Sequence record: NC_073077.1
DNA: 42,624 bases
Strand: one strand, 5' to 3'
From: Escherichia phage vB_Eco_Maverick
Under the pieces are notes generated by a model. That model searched no databases, was not told the DNA's origin, and saw only the letters and a list, made by a program, of their open reading frames with translations. Of this stretch, positions 3,479 to 31,491 are shown in pieces (positions within the stretch are counted from its first letter, which is position 1; every line of letters starts with the position of its first letter). The position numbers and the translations under genes are program-made.

Positions 3479-4263
3479 ATAAACTCTATCGTGAAGCGAC
3501 GCGCTTTGACCCATCGGGCCGCGTTCGCCTGATTCACATTGACGCGCAGGACGTGGAACCCGGCGACGGCGCGATCGGCGCGGGGCACCACTATTTTCAC
3601 TACTGCTTTATTCCGCACACTGCCGAGGATATTGCTGCCGCTGGGGGTGACGAGGATAAGCTAAAACCTAAATCAATCTTCTTCGGCGGGCAGGAGTTCG
3701 AATTTTGGCCCTTTGATTTGTCCGGCCTCAACTTCTCCACGACAACGGCAGCGGAACCGCAGCTGACCATTGTCGATATCGGCGGCATAATCACCCGGCT
3801 GTCGCTGAATCACGACCAGCTACTGGGCGCGAAGGTTGAGATCATTGATACGTTCGCGAAGTTCCTGGACAACGGGACAGATCCAGACCCGACGCAGAAA
3901 CGAGTTCAGGAGTATTACATCGACTCGCAGGTCGGGCGCAATCCGGGCAAGCAAATCACCTTCGCACTATCCTCACCCGCGGATATGGAAGGGCAGGTCG
4001 TCCCGCGTCGCCAAATCATGAACATGTGCGAATGGGCGTTAAATGGGAAGTACGCCAGCGGGGACGGTTGCACGTGGAACCTTGCGAAGCCAGGCATCAA
4101 ATACTACGACGAGCGCGGAAACGAAGTCATCTCTATGAATATGGACCGCTGCGGCGGATGCTTGTCTGACTGCTACCTTCGTTTCGGTCAAGGTCTTGCG
4201 GATCCGAAAGCTGCGGTGCTGGACTTCGGCGGTTTTCCAGGGTCCAAATTGATTAAGGGGTAG
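3475..4263 (+). CDS. minor tail protein L-like
   Basis: 262 aa; C-terminal cysteine cluster (C-x..-CGGCLSDC) like the Fe-S region of lambda gpL; gene order M-L-K-I-J; start overlaps previous stop (ATGA). Confidence 0.7.
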   Translation: MNKLYREATRFDPSGRVRLIHIDAQDVEPGDGAIGAGHHYFHYCFIPHTAEDIAAAGGDEDKLKPKSIFFGGQEFEFWPFDLSGLNFSTTTAAEPQLTIVDIGGIITRLSLNHDQLLGAKVEIIDTFAKFLDNGTDPDPTQKRVQEYYIDSQVGRNPGKQITFALSSPADMEGQVVPRRQIMNMCEWALNGKYASGDGCTWNLAKPGIKYYDERGNEVISMNMDRCGGCLSDCYLRFGQGLADPKAAVLDFGGFPGSKLIKG

Positions 4264-4265
4264 TC

Positions 4266-5006
4266 ATGTTGACTAAAAAGGTTAAAAGCGATATCGCCGC
4301 ACATGTCGCGGCATGTCTGCCGGAAGAAGCCTGCGGCCTTGTCGTCATGGTGGGCCGTAAGCAAGTATTCGTCCCGTGCCTTAACGTGTTTGAAGACCCG
4401 ACCGGCGTGCGCTCACGCAAAGACGCTTTCACGATTAGCGATATGGCCTGGATGGATGCCGAGGATATGGGCGACGTCGTGCGAGTAGTCCACTCGCATC
4501 CAGGCCAGCGAGAGCTTACACCCTCACTTGGCGACGTTAACGGATGCAACGGCAGCGGCGTAGTCTGGACCATCACTAACGAATATGGCGACTTTATCGA
4601 GATCGACCCTGAAGACCCGCCGCTGGTAGGCCGCCGATTTGTTCTCGGAATTACAGATTGTTATGGCCTCGTCATGGACTGGCACAAAAAGCAGGGTGTA
4701 AACCTGCCAGACTTCCGCGTGCCGTATAACTGGTGGGAGACAGGCGAAAATCTGTATATGGATAATTGGTACGGTGCTGGCTTCAGGGAATGCGAGGAGA
4801 ATACGCCGGGGGCAATGGTCATCATGCAGATTAGCGCGCCTGTGCCTAACCACGCTGGGATATTCCTTCCGGGCAACCAACTACTACACCATATCTACGG
4901 CAGCCTGTCGAGCGTGATTCCCTTCCGGGCAGGATTTTTCCGCGACAATGTGGTTAAATGGGTACGTCATAAAGACCTACCAGGGAATATCACAGAATGG
5001 CAATGA
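4266..5006 (+). CDS. tail assembly protein K-like (JAB/MPN plus NlpC/P60 domains)
   Basis: JAMM-like motif VHSHPGQRELTPSLGD (H-x-H-x7-S-x2-D) followed by a Cys/His-containing C-terminal half; position after the L-like gene. Confidence 0.75.
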   Translation: MLTKKVKSDIAAHVAACLPEEACGLVVMVGRKQVFVPCLNVFEDPTGVRSRKDAFTISDMAWMDAEDMGDVVRVVHSHPGQRELTPSLGDVNGCNGSGVVWTITNEYGDFIEIDPEDPPLVGRRFVLGITDCYGLVMDWHKKQGVNLPDFRVPYNWWETGENLYMDNWYGAGFRECEENTPGAMVIMQISAPVPNHAGIFLPGNQLLHHIYGSLSSVIPFRAGFFRDNVVKWVRHKDLPGNITEWQ

Positions 5007-10917: not shown

Positions 10918-11439
10918 TTATTTCAGTGCGCCAGTCACCAGTGTTTTTTCCATGTTGCGGAAGTCTTCCGGCGTCATGAGGATTTTGGACCCGTCTTCGC
11001 CAGTTAGAACGACCATAGGCTGGACGTCTTGATCTGCAATGCCGAAATTGGCGGCTTTAACCATCTTGCCAGCCGATGCAGAAGGATGCCGCGTCCCCGC
11101 GGTGGCGATGGGCCAACCTTTAAGGCTATCGTATTGCGCTGCCGTCGTATCGACCTGAATCTCATCATGAACGGTCATGTAGGATTCGCCCAGCAAGGCC
11201 GCATACGCTACCAGGTCGACGATATTGTCTTCCTGGTGCTTACGGTGCTGGCGCACCAGCTTCAGGCAGATCAAGAAGGTCCAGGCTTCTTGCTCGGTAA
11301 GGTTGCGCCCGGTAAGCGCGTTAAACACGGCGGCGACCTGTTTAGCGCTGCGTTCGTCTTTCGCGTTGTCATAGCCGTTTTCTTTCCCGCGCTGTTCCAT
11401 AGTGGTGGCGGCGTTTTTGCAGTATTCGTATGCTTTCAT
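10918..11439 (-). CDS. hypothetical protein, possibly nucleotide-metabolism related
   Basis: 173-aa ORF with AAGGA Shine-Dalgarno; all-alpha-looking N-terminal region; no firm motif recognised. Confidence 0.45.
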   Translation of the reverse strand: MKAYEYCKNAATTMEQRGKENGYDNAKDERSAKQVAAVFNALTGRNLTEQEAWTFLICLKLVRQHRKHQEDNIVDLVAYAALLGESYMTVHDEIQVDTTAAQYDSLKGWPIATAGTRHPSASAGKMVKAANFGIADQDVQPMVVLTGEDGSKILMTPEDFRNMEKTLVTGALK

Positions 11440-11502: not shown

Positions 11503-11973
11503 CTATTGGTTGCAAGTGAATTTTGCAACGTTTATTGCGTAAATTTTCGGGACCAAATCGCTACACGCCCGACGAATTGCCGCGATGTTCTTCTCGCAAT
11601 CTTCAATGATGACCAGTTCCGACACGTCTGCATAGCAGACCATCTTGAACACGGCACACGCTTTAAACTCTGGCGGCGGGGTGTCATCCAGCATGTGGCG
11701 CATAAACAACCGGCCTGTCGGGAATACTTCCAGTTGCTCGGCGGTAGTCTCCCAACATTCGCGCTGCCGGTTAGTCAGATACGCTATCTCGAAGCCTTGC
11801 TCTTTGTACATGCGCAGCAGCGGCAGCATATCCATGTTCAGGTCTTCGCGTACGTGCGCTTTGTGCCACTTTGCCCAAAAGGTTGATTTCGTTTTTATCC
11901 CCGGCACCAGGTCGGCACGCGCATCGCTTGAGCCATTAATAACGCCATCCAAATCGCAAATCAGTAATTTCAT
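11503..11973 (-). CDS. HAD-superfamily phosphatase-like protein
   Basis: N-terminal MKLLICDLDGVI matches HAD motif I (DxDG); downstream Thr and acidic motifs present; 156 aa. Confidence 0.6.
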   Translation of the reverse strand: MKLLICDLDGVINGSSDARADLVPGIKTKSTFWAKWHKAHVREDLNMDMLPLLRMYKEQGFEIAYLTNRQRECWETTAEQLEVFPTGRLFMRHMLDDTPPPEFKACAVFKMVCYADVSELVIIEDCEKNIAAIRRACSDLVPKIYAINVAKFTCNQ

Positions 11974-12194: not shown

Positions 12195-12660
12195 GGAGTT
12201 CTCCTTCGCTCATTATTTCAATTTGTGCGCTGCCGATTGGTGGCGCTTCGTCAAAGATTATCAATTGCTGGCACTTGTTATTGCTCGGCCCGACTTCACC
12301 GGAGACGGCGTGAATGAATCTAATCCGCCAGTCCAGAAGAATTATCAGGTTTGCAGTCTTCCGGGCAAGCCTCGCCCACTTCGTCGACGTGTCCTGATTC
12401 AGTAGCATGACAGTCCGTCGTCCGTGCGCGGCACACTCTACCCACGGCAGCGGATCGGAATACGGCGGATTGCACCACTTCCACCCTTTCAACTCGGACC
12501 AGTCCACATCAAGCGCGCTGTGTTCCGCCGTGAAGTAACGCGGTAGCAGATGATTGGCGTCGCTTGCCGCCATATCGTAACGGAATCGGTATTTCCGACG
12601 AAGCGGTTTGAATAAAGCTGGCGGCGTGCGCCAGCTATCTTTTTGCTCACTCTTCTGCAT
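12175..12660 (-). CDS. DNA N6-adenine methyltransferase (phage Dam-like)
   Basis: 161 aa containing the catalytic NPPY tetrapeptide (WCNPPYSD) and the overall shape of small phage Dam methyltransferases. Confidence 0.75.
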   Translation of the reverse strand: MQKSEQKDSWRTPPALFKPLRRKYRFRYDMAASDANHLLPRYFTAEHSALDVDWSELKGWKWCNPPYSDPLPWVECAAHGRRTVMLLNQDTSTKWARLARKTANLIILLDWRIRFIHAVSGEVGPSNNKCQQLIIFDEAPPIGSAQIEIMSEGELLEYLNR

Positions 12661-13111
12661 GACCTGGATCTATCGCGTATAAAGGGACTTTATTGCCGGT
12701 TTTCATAACGCGCTGGACGCGCTTTGACTCCTCGGCGCTCATTGGGCGCATATCAGTGCTATAACCACCGTTTGATGTGTGCCGCCACGCTATCAGCACC
12801 AGATCTTTCCGGTCGATCTTAGACTGGCGGCCCTTCGGTCGCACGTACGCCTCGGCCCGTTTGCAATGCTCGCGCAGACCTTCGGCAGTGATGCGGTTTA
12901 GCGAGACGGTGGTTGTGTACCCGGTGCGCTGCATAATACCCATCAACTCATACAGCAGTTCGAAGCGCTCCTCTAATTCCTTGCGCGCCTTCTCCTCGCC
13001 TTCATAGCTCGCCAGGTAGGTGTCCGCCAGCGCGTTCGCGCGTTCGGCCTGTTCGCGGGCTTCGAGGCATTGCGCGGCCCAGTAATTTTTCTCTTCTTGT
13101 AAAATTTTCAT
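12647..13111 (-). CDS. hypothetical protein (coiled-coil)
   Basis: 154-aa ORF overlapping its neighbours by a few nt; no motif recognised. Confidence 0.5.
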   Translation of the reverse strand: MKILQEEKNYWAAQCLEAREQAERANALADTYLASYEGEEKARKELEERFELLYELMGIMQRTGYTTTVSLNRITAEGLREHCKRAEAYVRPKGRQSKIDRKDLVLIAWRHTSNGGYSTDMRPMSAEESKRVQRVMKTGNKVPLYAIDPGHAEE

Positions 13112-19141: not shown

Positions 19142-19924
19142 TTAACGGCGGCGACGTTTACGTGGCGCTTCGTCTTCGTCGTCGTCCTCATCTTCGTCAT
19201 CGCGTGGCTTACGACGTTTGCGAGGTTTTTCATCTTCCTCATCGTCGTCGTCATCGCGGCGCTTGGATTTCTTGGACTTGCGCGGCTTGTCATCTTCATC
19301 ATCGTCATCACGACGTTTTGACTTCTTAGCCTTGCGCGGTGCTTCGTCTTCGTCGTCGTTGTCCAGGTCTTCATCGGAGCAAGAAGACCCGCCACCGCCG
19401 AAGGCTTCACCGTCATCACGGAAGCGTAAACCCAGCAAGCCAGCACCGAGTCCCTTGCCGTTGGTGTTGTTCCACGCCCAAATATCAAGGGACACGTTGC
19501 AATAACAACCAGAGTAGATCTCCTGGCCTTCAATCTCGTCGCCGTCGATGGTCAGACCTTGTTCAGTCTGCTTCTCGCCGAGTGACGTTTGAATGATTGG
19601 TTGTTTGAACGATTTGGCGTTGATATACAACATGCCTTCGAATTCTTCGGTTACTTCATCGCGCTCGTCGCCGTCGCGCACTGCGCATTCCTTAGAATCC
19701 TGGGCGTAGTGGCGGTCCATCCACTTATCGGCATTCTTCTCGGATTTCAGCTTGTCGGTGAGCACTGCGCGCGCTGCCGCTTCCACTTTGTCCACCTGCG
19801 GATCTTCTTTATCCAGAAGAATCACGGCACGGTATGCCGGTTTTTGTCCATCCTGTTTAGGGGTATCACGTTCCCAAATTTTCAGGAAACATACGCGCAC
19901 ATTTTTCAGGTTGACTTTAGCCAT
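19142..19924 (-). CDS. DUF2815-like single-stranded DNA-binding protein with repetitive charged C-terminal tail
   Basis: N-terminus MAKVNLKNVRVCFLKIWE matches the conserved start of DUF2815 proteins found beside DUF2800 nucleases and PolA; C-terminal 90 aa are alternating poly-D/E and poly-K/R blocks encoded by DNA tandem repeats. Confidence 0.65.
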   Translation of the reverse strand: MAKVNLKNVRVCFLKIWERDTPKQDGQKPAYRAVILLDKEDPQVDKVEAAARAVLTDKLKSEKNADKWMDRHYAQDSKECAVRDGDERDEVTEEFEGMLYINAKSFKQPIIQTSLGEKQTEQGLTIDGDEIEGQEIYSGCYCNVSLDIWAWNNTNGKGLGAGLLGLRFRDDGEAFGGGGSSCSDEDLDNDDEDEAPRKAKKSKRRDDDDEDDKPRKSKKSKRRDDDDDEEDEKPRKRRKPRDDEDEDDDEDEAPRKRRRR

Positions 19925-20014
19925 TTTCCAATTCCTCATTTTCACATGCATCGGGGTTATTGGAAGCCACCCCGTTCGGCTTGGTTGCCAATTTACTTGG
20001 TTGCGCCTAAGCGG

Positions 20015-20257
20015 TCAAGCATTTTCATTAAAAAGATTTCTGGTAACGTAGTCGGTAGCGTTCTCGATCCAGCTTAATGGCGGGCGGTCGATATTCTTCT
20101 CCACCCAATCGGCGGCAGCGTCGCTATAACCGTCATCCAGCCAGCGGGTCGGATGCCGAATCATCCACGCCACCATTAACACGCCATGCACACAATGCAG
20201 GATAAAGCACAGCGCGCCGATAACAAACATCAATAATATTGCGAATACTTTATTCAT
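20015..20257 (-). CDS. small membrane protein
   Basis: 80 aa with two hydrophobic helices (VFAILLMFVIGALCFILHCVHGVLMVAWMI). Confidence 0.4.
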   Translation of the reverse strand: MNKVFAILLMFVIGALCFILHCVHGVLMVAWMIRHPTRWLDDGYSDAAADWVEKNIDRPPLSWIENATDYVTRNLFNENA

Positions 20258-21680
20258 TGCTTAAGTCCTCGTCAGTAGCTACAGACCACGCAGGGCGCGG
20301 GTCGTCGATGGGTGCTAATACCGGTTTAGCTGGTGCGCGCGTTATTTTATCACACAACTTTGCCCACACTTTCGGCTTCTCGTCCTTCAGTACCTTCTCG
20401 GCATCAGTAGGGCTGAGTAATGTTTCTTTGTACATAACATCGCGCTTGATCCGGGCCTTCGTGAAGATTTCAATCACTTCGCTTTCGTCCGCCCACTTGC
20501 GGATCCCTTCCTTACCGGCAACCATTTTGAGGCCCAGAGATTCGCCTTCGCCAGCCATAACCGCCTTGAATACCGCGGACTCTATAGCCTTGATGTGCTG
20601 GCGCATTGCGTCTAAACCTTCATATGCCTTGCGCAGTTCTGCGGCGGTCATAGCGCCTGGGGCCGCTTCTTTCTTACCACGCTTCGCACGTCGTGCCGCT
20701 TTGCGGGCTTCGCGGGCCATATTGCGGTCGTGATTGGCGCATTCTTCCTCTGTCGCAATACTCACGTCGTCGCCCAGGTCTTCGTCTGTTGCCGTTGGTG
20801 GGGCCATCGTGTCGATTGCGGCCTTAGCGCGGGCGCTACACTGATCCGCAAATCTGCACCACTGACACGCATCAACGCTCGGTCGGAAGTCGGCGCGGGT
20901 GAGTCCTTTCTTACCGCGGGCGTACGCTTCCAGGGCGGCGATAGCACGCTTGGACGCAAACTTCGCGAATATCTCCAGGGCTTCTACCGAAATATCCCAC
21001 TCCGACGCCCCGCCGCAATACGGCTGGAAGATAACCAGGCGCACGGTCGTAATGTCGTACATGGTTTTCAGCTTGCGCAGCAGGCCCAGCGCATACAACA
21101 TAAGCTGTTTGTTTTCTTTCGCCTCGACCTTATGCCGCCCAGTCTTCAGGTCGCCAACAATCAGCATGTACGTGCCGTCGGTCTTCTTCATGACCATGAC
21201 CATATCTGCAGTACCGAACGTCTTAACCCGGTTGCCGTCGATCTCGAAGCCAGAGTGTAGGACGCGGGTCAGATCGGCGCGCATCTCAAGCTGAACAAAC
21301 TCCGCCACTTCGAGGAGCGGTCGCCAGTGGTCGATGTATGCGTCGCACTGTTTCACCATGTCGTCGTTGACCAGCACGCCGCCTTTCGGTGCTTTCGGGT
21401 GTGCCTTTACCGGTCCCTTACCCTCGTTCTCGACGTAGCACCCTTTGTACGTCTTCGCGGTTATCAGCTTCTCACCGGCAATGATGCGGTTGAGCACGAC
21501 TTCAGATACGGTGTGCATACTCGTACCGTTAATCGCCGCTTGCCCTGATTCGTTCGGGATATCTTTTTCCACCACCAGGGCGGCGGGGCAACCCATCCAT
21601 TTTTTAGCACCGGATGGGCCGAGTAATGAGTGTTCCGTGTTGCTGCCGGATTGCGTTTTACGTTTTGGTTTAATCGCCAT
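20250..21680 (-). CDS. DUF2800-like PD-(D/E)xK exonuclease (Cas4/RecB-like)
   Basis: N-terminal HSLLGPSGAKKWMGCPA signature, central D...E-x-K region, and C-terminal Cys cluster CQWCRFADQC; adjacent to DUF2815-like and PolA genes. Confidence 0.75.
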   Translation of the reverse strand: MAIKPKRKTQSGSNTEHSLLGPSGAKKWMGCPAALVVEKDIPNESGQAAINGTSMHTVSEVVLNRIIAGEKLITAKTYKGCYVENEGKGPVKAHPKAPKGGVLVNDDMVKQCDAYIDHWRPLLEVAEFVQLEMRADLTRVLHSGFEIDGNRVKTFGTADMVMVMKKTDGTYMLIVGDLKTGRHKVEAKENKQLMLYALGLLRKLKTMYDITTVRLVIFQPYCGGASEWDISVEALEIFAKFASKRAIAALEAYARGKKGLTRADFRPSVDACQWCRFADQCSARAKAAIDTMAPPTATDEDLGDDVSIATEEECANHDRNMAREARKAARRAKRGKKEAAPGAMTAAELRKAYEGLDAMRQHIKAIESAVFKAVMAGEGESLGLKMVAGKEGIRKWADESEVIEIFTKARIKRDVMYKETLLSPTDAEKVLKDEKPKVWAKLCDKITRAPAKPVLAPIDDPRPAWSVATDEDLSNE

Positions 21681-29452: not shown

Positions 29453-29460
29453 ACAATTAA

Positions 29461-29484
29461 GCCCGGAATTAACCGGGCTTTTTA
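29461..29484 (+). terminator. rho-independent terminator after the lysis cassette
   Basis: gcccgg-aattaa-ccgggc stem followed by ttttt. Confidence 0.7.
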
Positions 29485-29666
29485 TTGCTTGACTCGCAAC
29501 CAATCAACGAGAGGAGTAATCAAGATGGCACGTAAAGATATTTGGGTATTAGCGATCTGGACCACCGCGGCTTTTATCGGCATGGTTATTTGCGAATTGA
29601 TATAGCCCGCCGCCATATGGACCGTGGTATATTGTCCACGGTCCACTAATCAGGAATTAATTAAAT

Positions 29667-30809
29667 ATGCACCCGCAAACTAAAATTACCGATGAGCAAT
29701 TGATCGCAGAAATTCAGGCAGGGACTACGGTTAAAGAGATTGCGAAGAAATACGGCATTGCACTTCGAAATGTCTATATGCGCAAAGCCCGCCTGTCGAA
29801 AAAGGGGATTGGTCATGGCAATGATGCCGTGATCCGTAAGCGCGTTGCCGATGGCTTTGGGGTTAAGCGCGTATCGGCCCTGGTGCGCGGTAATGGCGAA
29901 GAGGTCATGTCGTGGGTCATCACTGAGCAGGACAAGGAGCGCCAACTCGAAGCTATGCGCGCTGTTGTCGAGGGTATGAACAGCGAAATCACACCGGCAG
30001 CGCCAGTAAACGCCCCGCCAGTACCGATCCAGGCGCTAGACTTGCTCAACCTGTACACCGTGTCCGACTTCCACCTGGGTATGTTGGCATGGGGCGAGGA
30101 GACTGGCGAAGACTGGGATATGGCGATAGCCGAAGACCTGTTCTACCGCTGGTTTGTCGAAGCCTTCGCCCGCGCCCCGGACGCAGGCACTGCCGTAATT
30201 AATATCCTCGGTGATATGGCCCACTTTGATAGCCTCGATGCTGTCACTCCGGCAAGTGGTCACATACTGGACGCCGACACCCGATACCAGAAGTTGGTCC
30301 GCTACATGATTCGCATGGTGCGCAACGTCGTCGAACTTGCCCTGCAAAAACACCACAAAGTCAAACTGCTAATCGTCCAGGGGAATCATGATGAGTCGGG
30401 CATGATTTGGCTTGCTGAGATGTTCAACACGCTGTACGAGAACGAGCCGCGCGTCGATGTGGATACGTCCCCGGACGTCTACAAAATGGTGCAGCACGGC
30501 AAGACCACGCTATTTTTCCACCACGGGCATAAAGCGCGCTTTGACGCTATCGAAACCGTCATGATTTCTAAATTCAGACAGGCTTTCGGGGCCAGTGAGT
30601 ACAGCTACGCGCACGTAGGCCACTTGCACCACCAGAAGATTGTAGAATCCCGCAACATGATTGTTGAACAGCACCGGACGCTCGCAGCGAAAGACGCCTA
30701 CGCCAGTCGTGGCGGTTGGATGAGCGGTCGCAGCGCAAACGTCATCACCTATAGCGCCAACTACGGCGAAGTAGCGCGCTTAACCATTAGCCCGGAAATG
30801 TTGAAGTAA
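29667..30809 (+). CDS. HTH-containing calcineurin-like metallophosphoesterase (SbcD/Mre11-like)
   Basis: N-terminal HTH TTVKEIAKKYGIALRNVYMRKAR; phosphoesterase motifs in order SDFHLG, GDMAHFD, GNHDE, HHGH, GHLHH; lies immediately upstream of terS. Confidence 0.65.
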   Translation: MHPQTKITDEQLIAEIQAGTTVKEIAKKYGIALRNVYMRKARLSKKGIGHGNDAVIRKRVADGFGVKRVSALVRGNGEEVMSWVITEQDKERQLEAMRAVVEGMNSEITPAAPVNAPPVPIQALDLLNLYTVSDFHLGMLAWGEETGEDWDMAIAEDLFYRWFVEAFARAPDAGTAVINILGDMAHFDSLDAVTPASGHILDADTRYQKLVRYMIRMVRNVVELALQKHHKVKLLIVQGNHDESGMIWLAEMFNTLYENEPRVDVDTSPDVYKMVQHGKTTLFFHHGHKARFDAIETVMISKFRQAFGASEYSYAHVGHLHHQKIVESRNMIVEQHRTLAAKDAYASRGGWMSGRSANVITYSANYGEVARLTISPEMLK

Positions 30810-30939
30810 CGGCAACCCATAAGCCTCCCAGCCTGCCGATTTGGTGGGCTTTTTTGTGCCTGTTATAATCCCCCTTAGATGGCAGGGCCGTCTCCTATGT
30901 TGCCGATGGTCGGCGCATATGAACAAAAGGGCTTATATC

Positions 30940-31491
30940 ATGGCAGAAATTAAAGTTAAGGGCCGACGCGCCAAACTGGACGGACGAGTAGCAGTAACCC
31001 CTCGCCGTAAACCAGGCGAGCAAACCGAGCACACCAATCTCGGACCTGAAATCGAGTACGGAAAGCGCCGTAAAGGCGGCAAATGTGGACGCCCTACTGA
31101 CTACCGATCCGTTTACTGCGACCAGCTTCGCCGCTATTTTGCCGACGCCGACGCATGGCAGGTCAACTACTCCGATAAAGGCGCTGCGCAAGTAATCCCC
31201 CGGAACAAAATGCCAACCTTCGGCCGATTTGCCGCTGAAATCGGCGTGGGCGTAGCTTGCTTGTATCGCTGGGCGCGTGCGCATGAGGAGTTTGCCGAGG
31301 CGATGGCGGACGCAATGGAGTTGCAGAAAACTTTCCTGATGGAAGCTGGCGGCGTAACCATCGCGGCGGGCTTCGCTACGTTCCTGCTTAAAGCAAACCA
31401 CGGCGTCCGCGACGATGTACCGCTGGATGACGACGAAGATGATAACGGCGACGTAGTTGTCGAACCTTCCGGCAAAGGTCAGGGTGAATAA
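30940..31491 (+). CDS. terminase small subunit
   Basis: 183-aa basic N-terminus and acidic C-terminus, directly upstream of and overlapping the large terminase; start at MAEIKVKG with AAGG Shine-Dalgarno, alternative starts at 30919 or 30841. Confidence 0.6.
   Translation: MAEIKVKGRRAKLDGRVAVTPRRKPGEQTEHTNLGPEIEYGKRRKGGKCGRPTDYRSVYCDQLRRYFADADAWQVNYSDKGAAQVIPRNKMPTFGRFAAEIGVGVACLYRWARAHEEFAEAMADAMELQKTFLMEAGGVTIAAGFATFLLKANHGVRDDVPLDDDEDDNGDVVVEPSGKGQGE

Follow-up and report, generated by a model that had tools for sequence, protein, structure and literature searches.

The gene at positions 29667-30809 (plus strand) of Escherichia phage vB_Eco_Maverick (NC_073077.1) is an ATG-start open reading frame (ORF) for a protein of 380 amino acids (aa), in which a helix-turn-helix (HTH) precedes a calcineurin-like metallophosphoesterase (MPE). 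The window referred to below is the whole 42,624-nt stretch of DNA that was analysed, essentially the complete genome. We propose, giving the idea about an even chance, that this MPE is a stand-alone, Mn-dependent DNA phosphodiesterase or nuclease targeted by its HTH. We favour a DNA-directed enzyme acting without a partner on five grounds: an intact catalytic centre with invariant residues, nearest folds that are those of exonucleases, an exchangeable predicted DNA-binding domain, neighbourhoods of DNA and nucleotide metabolism genes in other phages, and the precedent of the mycobacteriophage protein Gp48. The first-pass annotation had described an SbcD/Mre11-like nuclease whose place at the head of the packaging module was called unusual and might link DNA-end processing to packaging or recombination. 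The proposed link to packaging does not hold: the MPE gene does not belong to the packaging machinery, no tie to packaging was found, and the finding in this window is an ordinary one.

In the proposed mechanism the HTH, joined to the catalytic core by a flexible linker, would recruit that core to DNA, where a binuclear (Mn2+/Fe-type) site would cleave phosphodiester bonds at ends or nicks without the help of a Rad50/SbcC ATPase. The phage would use the enzyme to break down host DNA and/or to process DNA ends for its own replication and recombination. We infer here the substrate (DNA), the nuclease activity and the role, as we do below the function of the promoter and the timing of expression.

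Catalytic core and N-terminal domain

The protein belongs to the superfamily of calcineurin-like binuclear metallophosphoesterases, for it carries both the metal-ligand motifs I-V and the beta-sandwich MPE fold. The motifs are D134-x-H136 (I), G182-D183 (II), G239-N240-H241-D242 (III), H285-H286 (IV) and G318-H319-x-H321 (V). Conservation was assessed in an alignment of 49 members, the window protein and 48 diverse relatives at 32-48% identity, in which D134, H136, G182, D183, N240, H241, H286, G318 and H321 are invariant; at least 90% of the members keep G239, D242, H285 and H319. The metal-ligand set is intact and the enzyme is predicted from its sequence to be active; the complete motif set reported earlier is borne out by ligands that are invariant or nearly so. 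Two signatures are the family's own, GDxxH186xD188 at motif II and T194-P...SGH199xL201D202xDxR206 on an ordered loop. The Pfam models Metallophos and Metallophos_2 fall marginally below threshold for the window protein and above threshold for some relatives. An AlphaFold2 (AF2) model built from the diverse alignment reaches a mean predicted local distance difference test (pLDDT) of 91.6 and a predicted template modelling score (pTM) of 0.79.

The N-terminal HTH of the 380-aa protein, also claimed in the first-pass annotation, is confirmed by three helices in the AF2 model (residues 9-17, 22-29 and 33-45; pLDDT 91-94) and by Pfam matches in relatives, namely Sigma70_r4_2 (best 1.5e-9), GerE (2.4e-8), HTH_1 and HTH_28. 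The window protein alone matches GerE, HTH_28 and HTH_7 at residues 10-46, all below threshold (GerE 15.2 bits vs 23.5), and the family profile searched against the Protein Data Bank (PDB) finds the GerE structure 1fse with an E of 0.01. On these models and profiles the presence of the HTH is secure, its subtype is less so and DNA binding is predicted. The linker that follows (residues 46-63) is of low confidence in AF2, lowest at residues 51-56 with pLDDT <50, and leads to a middle element, a long beta-hairpin and a helix, in which W83 is nearly invariant in the family alignment.

The HTH is the least conserved portion of the family proteins. The first 80-120 residues are missing in some lineages (Vibrio and Campylobacter phages), and other members carry different HTH types, or two HTHs, upon one constant core. 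As judged from this comparison, the HTH is thus an exchangeable accessory module on a constant catalytic domain, since some lineages do without it and others have different types on the same core. Different HTH types on one core are as expected of a DNA-targeting accessory.

Fold neighbours and characterised enzymes

In fold comparisons of the AF2 model the highest score is that of the small subunit DP1 of PolD, a 3'-5' exonuclease (15.6, 209 residues aligned), followed by Mre11 of T. maritima (15.1), SbcD of S. aureus (15.0), LpxH (13.9), MJ0936 (13.5) and additional Mre11/SbcD chains (13.2-13.4). Foldseek returns Mre11 (2e-8) interleaved with DP1, Rv0805, GpdQ and YfcE, all at 9-17% identity. 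In the model, therefore, the nearest fold is the DNA-exonuclease branch (PolD DP1, Mre11/SbcD), with a small margin over small-molecule phosphodiesterases. The outcome named beforehand as refuting a nuclease, best structural matches to protein phosphatases, was not seen: PPP-type enzymes score about 9 vs 15.0-15.6 for the best matches in the nuclease branch. A PPP-type Ser/Thr protein phosphatase (lambda PP/NinI-like) was rejected, as neither the GDxxDRG and GNHE signatures nor a closest fold of that type was found. The neighbours among predicted viral structures are uncharacterised; several bear the automatic name 'DNA polymerase II small subunit', whose source is annotation, and a genuine viral SbcD comes no higher than 50th.

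Archaeal DP1 (5ihe) is 14% identical to the window MPE, a DP1-type OB domain is not seen in the model, the DP2 partner is not present here, and phage T1, which carries a homologue, is without an annotated DNA polymerase.

As for Mre11 and SbcD (T. maritima Mre11 3qg5, S. aureus SbcD 7dog, E. coli SbcD 6s6v), they are 13-18% identical to the window MPE and lack both its N-terminal HTH and its beta-hairpin module. Motif II reads GDxxHxD in the window MPE vs GDVFD in E. coli SbcD, and GDxxH was rejected as an SbcD signature for that reason. The window protein has no match to the NCBIfam sbcD model at E<=1, and neither it nor the 48 relatives match the Pfam families SbcD_C and Mre11_DNA_bind. With hhalign, the family profile aligns to E. 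coli SbcD over GNHD only, at a probability of 2.4%; a PDB search with the plain sequence gives designed-repeat noise only, and the PDB profile search gives no significant MPE match, with Mre11/SbcD at E 0.45-1.6. No T1-like or Dhillonvirus phage is among the matches listed for E. coli SbcD by tblastn. Furthermore, the protein ends 59 residues past motif V, and these residues form the last core strands in the AF2 model; it is therefore without a capping or Rad50-binding domain. Sequence and model together indicate that the window MPE is not a member of the Mre11/SbcD family and that the likeness is at the level of the fold only. The resemblance claimed earlier stands as a nuclease-like fold.

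The same annotation had noted the absence of an SbcC/Rad50-like partner, with which we agree. No SbcC/Rad50 gene is found in the 42.6-kb window, where all ORFs of at least 400 aa are assigned (tape measure, tail fibre, helicase, PolA, PD-(D/E)XK exonuclease, helicase-primase, TerL and portal), and none is annotated in T1.

Partner-free MPEs that act on DNA are known. PdeM, the ligase-associated MPE of P. putida (6nvo), is a small stand-alone Mn-dependent DNA endonuclease tied to ligase operons, a linkage echoed by the ligase adjacency of the homologue in a Campylobacter phage. The best functional analogue is the MPE of cluster A mycobacteriophages (Gp48 of A10ZJ24 and gp47 of Bxb1), like the window MPE a stand-alone phage enzyme with no Rad50 partner. 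Experiments have shown Gp48 to have phosphodiesterase and DNase activity and, with no partner, to break down DNA both in vitro and in vivo; it is expressed early and takes part in disrupting host DNA and in replicating that of the phage (PMC12287305). It differs from the window MPE in its length (255 aa), in having motif I at residue 10 and in having no HTH; membership of the window MPE in the Gp48/Bxb1 gp47 family was rejected, the hhalign probability being 7.3% and the alignment limited to motifs III-V.

Family, gene order and proposed function

The protein matches phrog_704 (PHROG 704, "DNA repair exonuclease") at E=3.2e-161, its residues 5-380 aligning with positions 2-390 of a 390-position profile. 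Escherichia phage vB_Eco_CS16 (LR999870.1, Dhillonvirus) encodes a 100% identical protein, CS16C_054, and 6 kb around the gene are likewise 100% identical to that genome. Dozens of HK578-like coliphages carry copies 98-100% identical to the window protein under the labels 'hypothetical', 'putative phosphoesterase', 'calcineurin-like phosphoesterase superfamily domain protein' and 'DNA repair exonuclease'. GenBank and PHROGs already hold the gene for hundreds of near-identical phages, together with its two-domain architecture and an exonuclease/phosphoesterase label; the family name 'DNA repair exonuclease' is itself a prediction. By tblastn, homologues occur in 2,060 phage records (phages of Escherichia, Klebsiella, Salmonella, Vibrio, Campylobacter, Rhodobacter and others), and an exhaustive HMMER search of 50%-identity representatives gives 4,649 clusters at E<=1e-3 and 1,130 at E<=1e-30. 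Matches on plasmids add nothing: they are phage-sized replicons of 43-50 kb, with the sole exception of a 206-kb Deinococcus plasmid at 24% identity.

The T1 member of PHROG 704 is ORF16 (gp16, YP_003929), which carries the same annotation, and T1-like phages (Drexlerviridae) give full-length tblastn matches at 42-48% identity to the window MPE. Proteins of this T1 gp16 family, for which 'putative phosphoesterase' and 'winged HTH domain-containing protein' are also in use, are equal in length to the window protein (377-380 aa) and share its HTH and metallophosphoesterase, an architecture that GenBank already records for gp37 of Klebsiella phage Sushi; the difference lies in genomic position alone. 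Within Drexlerviridae an 'exonuclease-holin-endolysin-spanin' module is persistent in 508/522 (PMC13164509).

The order holin-holin-endolysin-MPE-terS-terL-portal is conserved in 13 Dhillonvirus loci wherever a downstream flank exists. In about 56 loci of other lineages, with homologues 41-76% identical, terS and terL do not come next and no tested window gene is recognisable within 6 kb. T1 has ORF16 flanked by the Dam methylase and the lysis cassette, with terS about 32 kb away. T1-like phages have the homologue upstream of the lysis cassette, often with a polynucleotide kinase/phosphatase (PNKP)-type phosphatase and a dNMP kinase, whereas the window gene is downstream of it; in the Webervirus Sushi the homologue is followed by a PNKP-type HAD phosphatase, a dNMP kinase and holin-endolysin-spanin, and in Pantoea phage AAS23 by a PNKP phosphatase and a dNMP kinase. 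In the Salmonella Jerseyvirus PK1 (3489-4619) it sits on a small opposite-strand island in the tail module beside a 'putative DNA binding protein', in Vibrio and Rhodobacter phages after lysis genes and in Campylobacter phage F370 after a DNA ligase. The comparison indicates that terS adjacency is confined to Dhillonvirus as a lineage-specific gene order.

These neighbourhoods bear on the main alternative, which we consider unlikely and in which the MPE is a phosphatase or phosphodiesterase of nucleotide or end metabolism (a 2',3'-cyclic phosphodiesterase/3'-phosphatase, or an NDP/dNDP or oligonucleotide hydrolase) working with a HAD-type PNKP phosphatase and a dNMP kinase in salvage or in RNA/DNA repair. 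It would account for the gene pair directly after the homologue in Sushi and AAS23, for the frequent MPE-PNKP pairing in Drexlerviridae without the SH3 gene (PMC13164509) and for the ligase that adjoins the homologue in F370. Small-molecule phosphodiesterases score structurally nearly as well as nucleases, and there is a documented defence system in which calcineurin-like and HAD enzymes are paired and act on dNTP/dNDP (bioRxiv 2026.01.15.699771). The only HAD phosphatase in the window (11503-11973, minus) is distant and weakly similar to the PNKP phosphatase domain. Nearby, the ORF at 10918-11439 (minus), a 'phosphofructokinase' by PHROG, is DUF6378 and was rejected both as the dNMP kinase partner of Webervirus and as a relative of Bxb1 gp49, and the 154-aa 'DNA ligase' by PHROG at 12647-13111 (minus) has no Pfam support.

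The MPE proteins of Dhillonvirus and of Jersey-like/Kagunavirus phages share 73-76% identity and no tested flanking gene is recognisably related, which suggests, on sequence comparison, horizontal movement of a cassette or an unusually strong constraint. Such behaviour of a mobile, independently transcribed cassette would also suit a counter-defence enzyme that destroys the nucleotide second messengers of host immunity (cyclic mono-, di- or oligonucleotides) and is expressed from its own host-type promoter. The cyclic-nucleotide phosphodiesterases Rv0805, GpdQ and YfcE are good fold matches, and the virion detection of the AAS23 homologue described below would suit an immediate-early function. 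However, the gene is near-universal in Drexlerviridae and anti-defence genes are usually patchy; the PADLOC defence and counter-defence profiles give no match at E<=1, supporting literature was not found, and the HTH would be left unexplained. We regard a counter-defence role as quite improbable.

Several points weigh against a DNA nuclease. The window has its own recombination module on the minus strand, formed by a DUF2800/PD-(D/E)XK exonuclease (20250-21680) and a gp2.5-like single-stranded DNA-binding/annealing protein (19142-19951); given this exonuclease, the MPE is not the sole candidate for a recombination nuclease. The HTH could serve autoregulation and not substrate targeting, and some members are without it. 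Dhillonviruses naturally evade ApeA, a proposed sensor of dinucleotides from host-DNA breakdown, which is a weak hint against extensive degradation of host DNA by these phages. Finally, biochemical or genetic work on any family member was not found in the literature searched. The 'exonuclease' of a Vibrio phage retron escape proved to be a DnaQ-type enzyme and not of the PHROG 704 family, the STAND-sensor paper does not mention the family, and the papers on host-genome degradation deal with T4 EndoII. One homologue, gp38 of AAS23, was detected by liquid chromatography-tandem mass spectrometry (LC-MS/MS) in purified virions along with bona fide structural proteins (PMC8004638), which could reflect contamination or an enzyme that is packaged and ejected.

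The gene is among the most widespread of T1-like, Dhillonvirus and Jersey-like phages whose function is known by prediction alone, and many of its carriers are candidates for therapy and belong to the BASEL model collection. If the MPE degrades host DNA, this would bear on the risk of generalized transduction and on the triggering of defence systems that sense DNA breakdown products. A bolder version of the nuclease proposal, which we put forward only as a speculation unlikely to be right in full, is that the T1 gp16 family represents a new class of Rad50-independent, HTH-guided, Mre11/DP1-like nuclease, made from a host-type promoter or borne in the virion, that attacks the host chromosome or competing DNA or disarms defence. 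If true, it could put a gene to the degradation of host DNA by T1-like phages, a function that has long been without one. Such a function is what the classical T1 'gene 2.5' phenotype concerns, in which mutation raises transduction frequency.

Transcription signals around the gene

The features of the locus are collected in Table 1. The hairpin upstream of the gene is a terminator in the GenBank record and is found 5' of the homologue in 13/13 Dhillonvirus loci, at a distance of 68-428 nt. Between it and the gene, a perfect 9-bp inverted repeat, GGACCGTGG / CCACGGTCC, flanks an extended -10-like element (29619-29644) which a consensus promoter scan omitted for want of a good -35. The core CCGTGrTATATTG is kept in 13/13 Dhillonvirus loci and the arms of the repeat are recognisable in about 9/13, one variant being longer through a paired change in both arms (GGGACC...GGTCCC). 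The element is a putative promoter, and the inverted repeat may be an operator, perhaps for the MPE's own HTH. The downstream hairpin, also a terminator in the GenBank record, is found in Dhillonvirus loci with terS directly next and is absent where an extra small ORF intervenes; the T1 homologue, like the window gene, has its own terminator directly after. To judge by these signals, the extended -10-like element, the gene and the two flanking terminator-like hairpins appear to form a self-contained transcription unit.

Table 1. Positions of the MPE gene, its domains and the adjoining signals in the window
Feature	Position	Strand	Basis
Intrinsic terminator-like hairpin AAGCCCGG-aattaa-CCGGGCTT then TTTTATT, closing the lysis cassette	29459..29489 (hairpin to 29480)	+	8-bp stem, 6 GC pairs
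Promoter-like region, extended -10-like TG(g)TATATT (TG 29625-29626, hexamer 29628-33)	29619..29644	+	Read from sequence
Shine-Dalgarno-like AGGA, 11 nt 5' of ATG	29652..29655	+	Sequence; kept as AATCAGGAA in Dhillonvirus loci
CDS, HTH-metallophosphoesterase (T1 gp16 family, phrog_704)	29667..30809	+	ORF read, profile match and homologue searches
Three-helix HTH, probably of sigma-70 region 4/LuxR-GerE type (residues 9-45)	29691..29801	+	AF2 helices, Pfam matches in relatives, PDB profile search
Middle element, long beta-hairpin (residues 64-88) and helix (90-106)	29856..29984	+	AF2 model, pLDDT about 80-85
Binuclear metallophosphoesterase core (residues 126-380)	30042..30806	+	Conserved columns, pLDDT 92-99, fold matches
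Intrinsic terminator-like hairpin AGCCTGCCG-att-TGGTGGGCT then TTTTTTG, directly 3' of the gene	30830..30857 (hairpin to 30850)	+	Hairpin scan
terS	30940..31491	+	phrog_3064 match from residue 37 of a longer TTG ORF; the record annotates ATG here

The start of terS is most likely, from the sequence, the ATG at 30940, 130 nt past the MPE stop and beyond the terminator-like hairpin. The earlier statement that the MPE gene lies immediately upstream of terS is right in that terS is the next gene, but the arrangement, with this gap and its hairpin, is not operon-style. Because of the flanking hairpins, the conserved -10-like core and the terS start past the terminator, the MPE gene looks like a self-contained cassette that is placed in different modules by lineage. 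The alleged significance of its place in the packaging module falls with the hairpin before terS, with the gene's own promoter-like element and with the roughly 56 loci elsewhere. An Mre11/SbcD-like nuclease heading the packaging module, whether for pac cleavage, for trimming of concatemer ends or for coupling recombination to packaging, could claim the Mre11/SbcD structures among the top fold matches, the position directly before terS in all Dhillonvirus loci with a downstream flank, and an HTH that could in principle recognise a near-pac site. Against it, the adjacency is absent from T1 and from Webervirus, Jerseyvirus, Vibrio, Rhodobacter and Campylobacter phages, a terminator-like hairpin separates the two genes, and the protein has neither the Mre11 capping domain nor the Rad50-binding one, nor any profile likeness to SbcD to speak of. 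Furthermore, the terS/terL pair of the window is canonical and its TerL has an RNaseH-like nuclease domain of its own. We find this explanation scarcely credible.

A promoter-like TTGGTG-N17-TATAAT (30841-30869) overlaps the 3' half of the terminator hairpin upstream of terS; its -35 is weak, it was unlisted by the consensus scan, and on its sequence it may be a promoter of the packaging/head operon. It could also be a target if the protein were primarily a transcription factor, with a sigma-70-region-4/LuxR-like HTH acting on phage promoters (its own or the late/packaging ones) and the phosphoesterase as a sensor or accessory. The Sigma70_r4_2 and GerE matches in relatives and the inverted repeat around the gene's own -10-like element are consistent with such a regulator. 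Yet all the catalytic residues are invariant in at least 49 diverse members, pointing to catalysis as the selected function, while some lineages have another HTH or none and conservation of the inverted repeat is partial. A regulator is thus very unlikely in our opinion, and an HTH-targeted nuclease remains our preferred reading.

Rho-independent terminators are also annotated inside late structural arrays, 18 of them in CS16 and about a dozen in T1 from terS to the tail genes, which raises the question of readthrough, by antitermination or with many internal promoters. Between the lysis terminator and the MPE gene there is, moreover, an unannotated 26-codon ORF (29526-29606, plus strand; MARKDIWVLAIWTTAAFIGMVICELI) that has a strong ribosome-binding site, GAGGAG, and encodes a single hydrophobic helix, where the GenBank record has an antisense ORF instead (29482-29616, minus) and the related phage Bas84 is annotated with small plus-strand ORFs.

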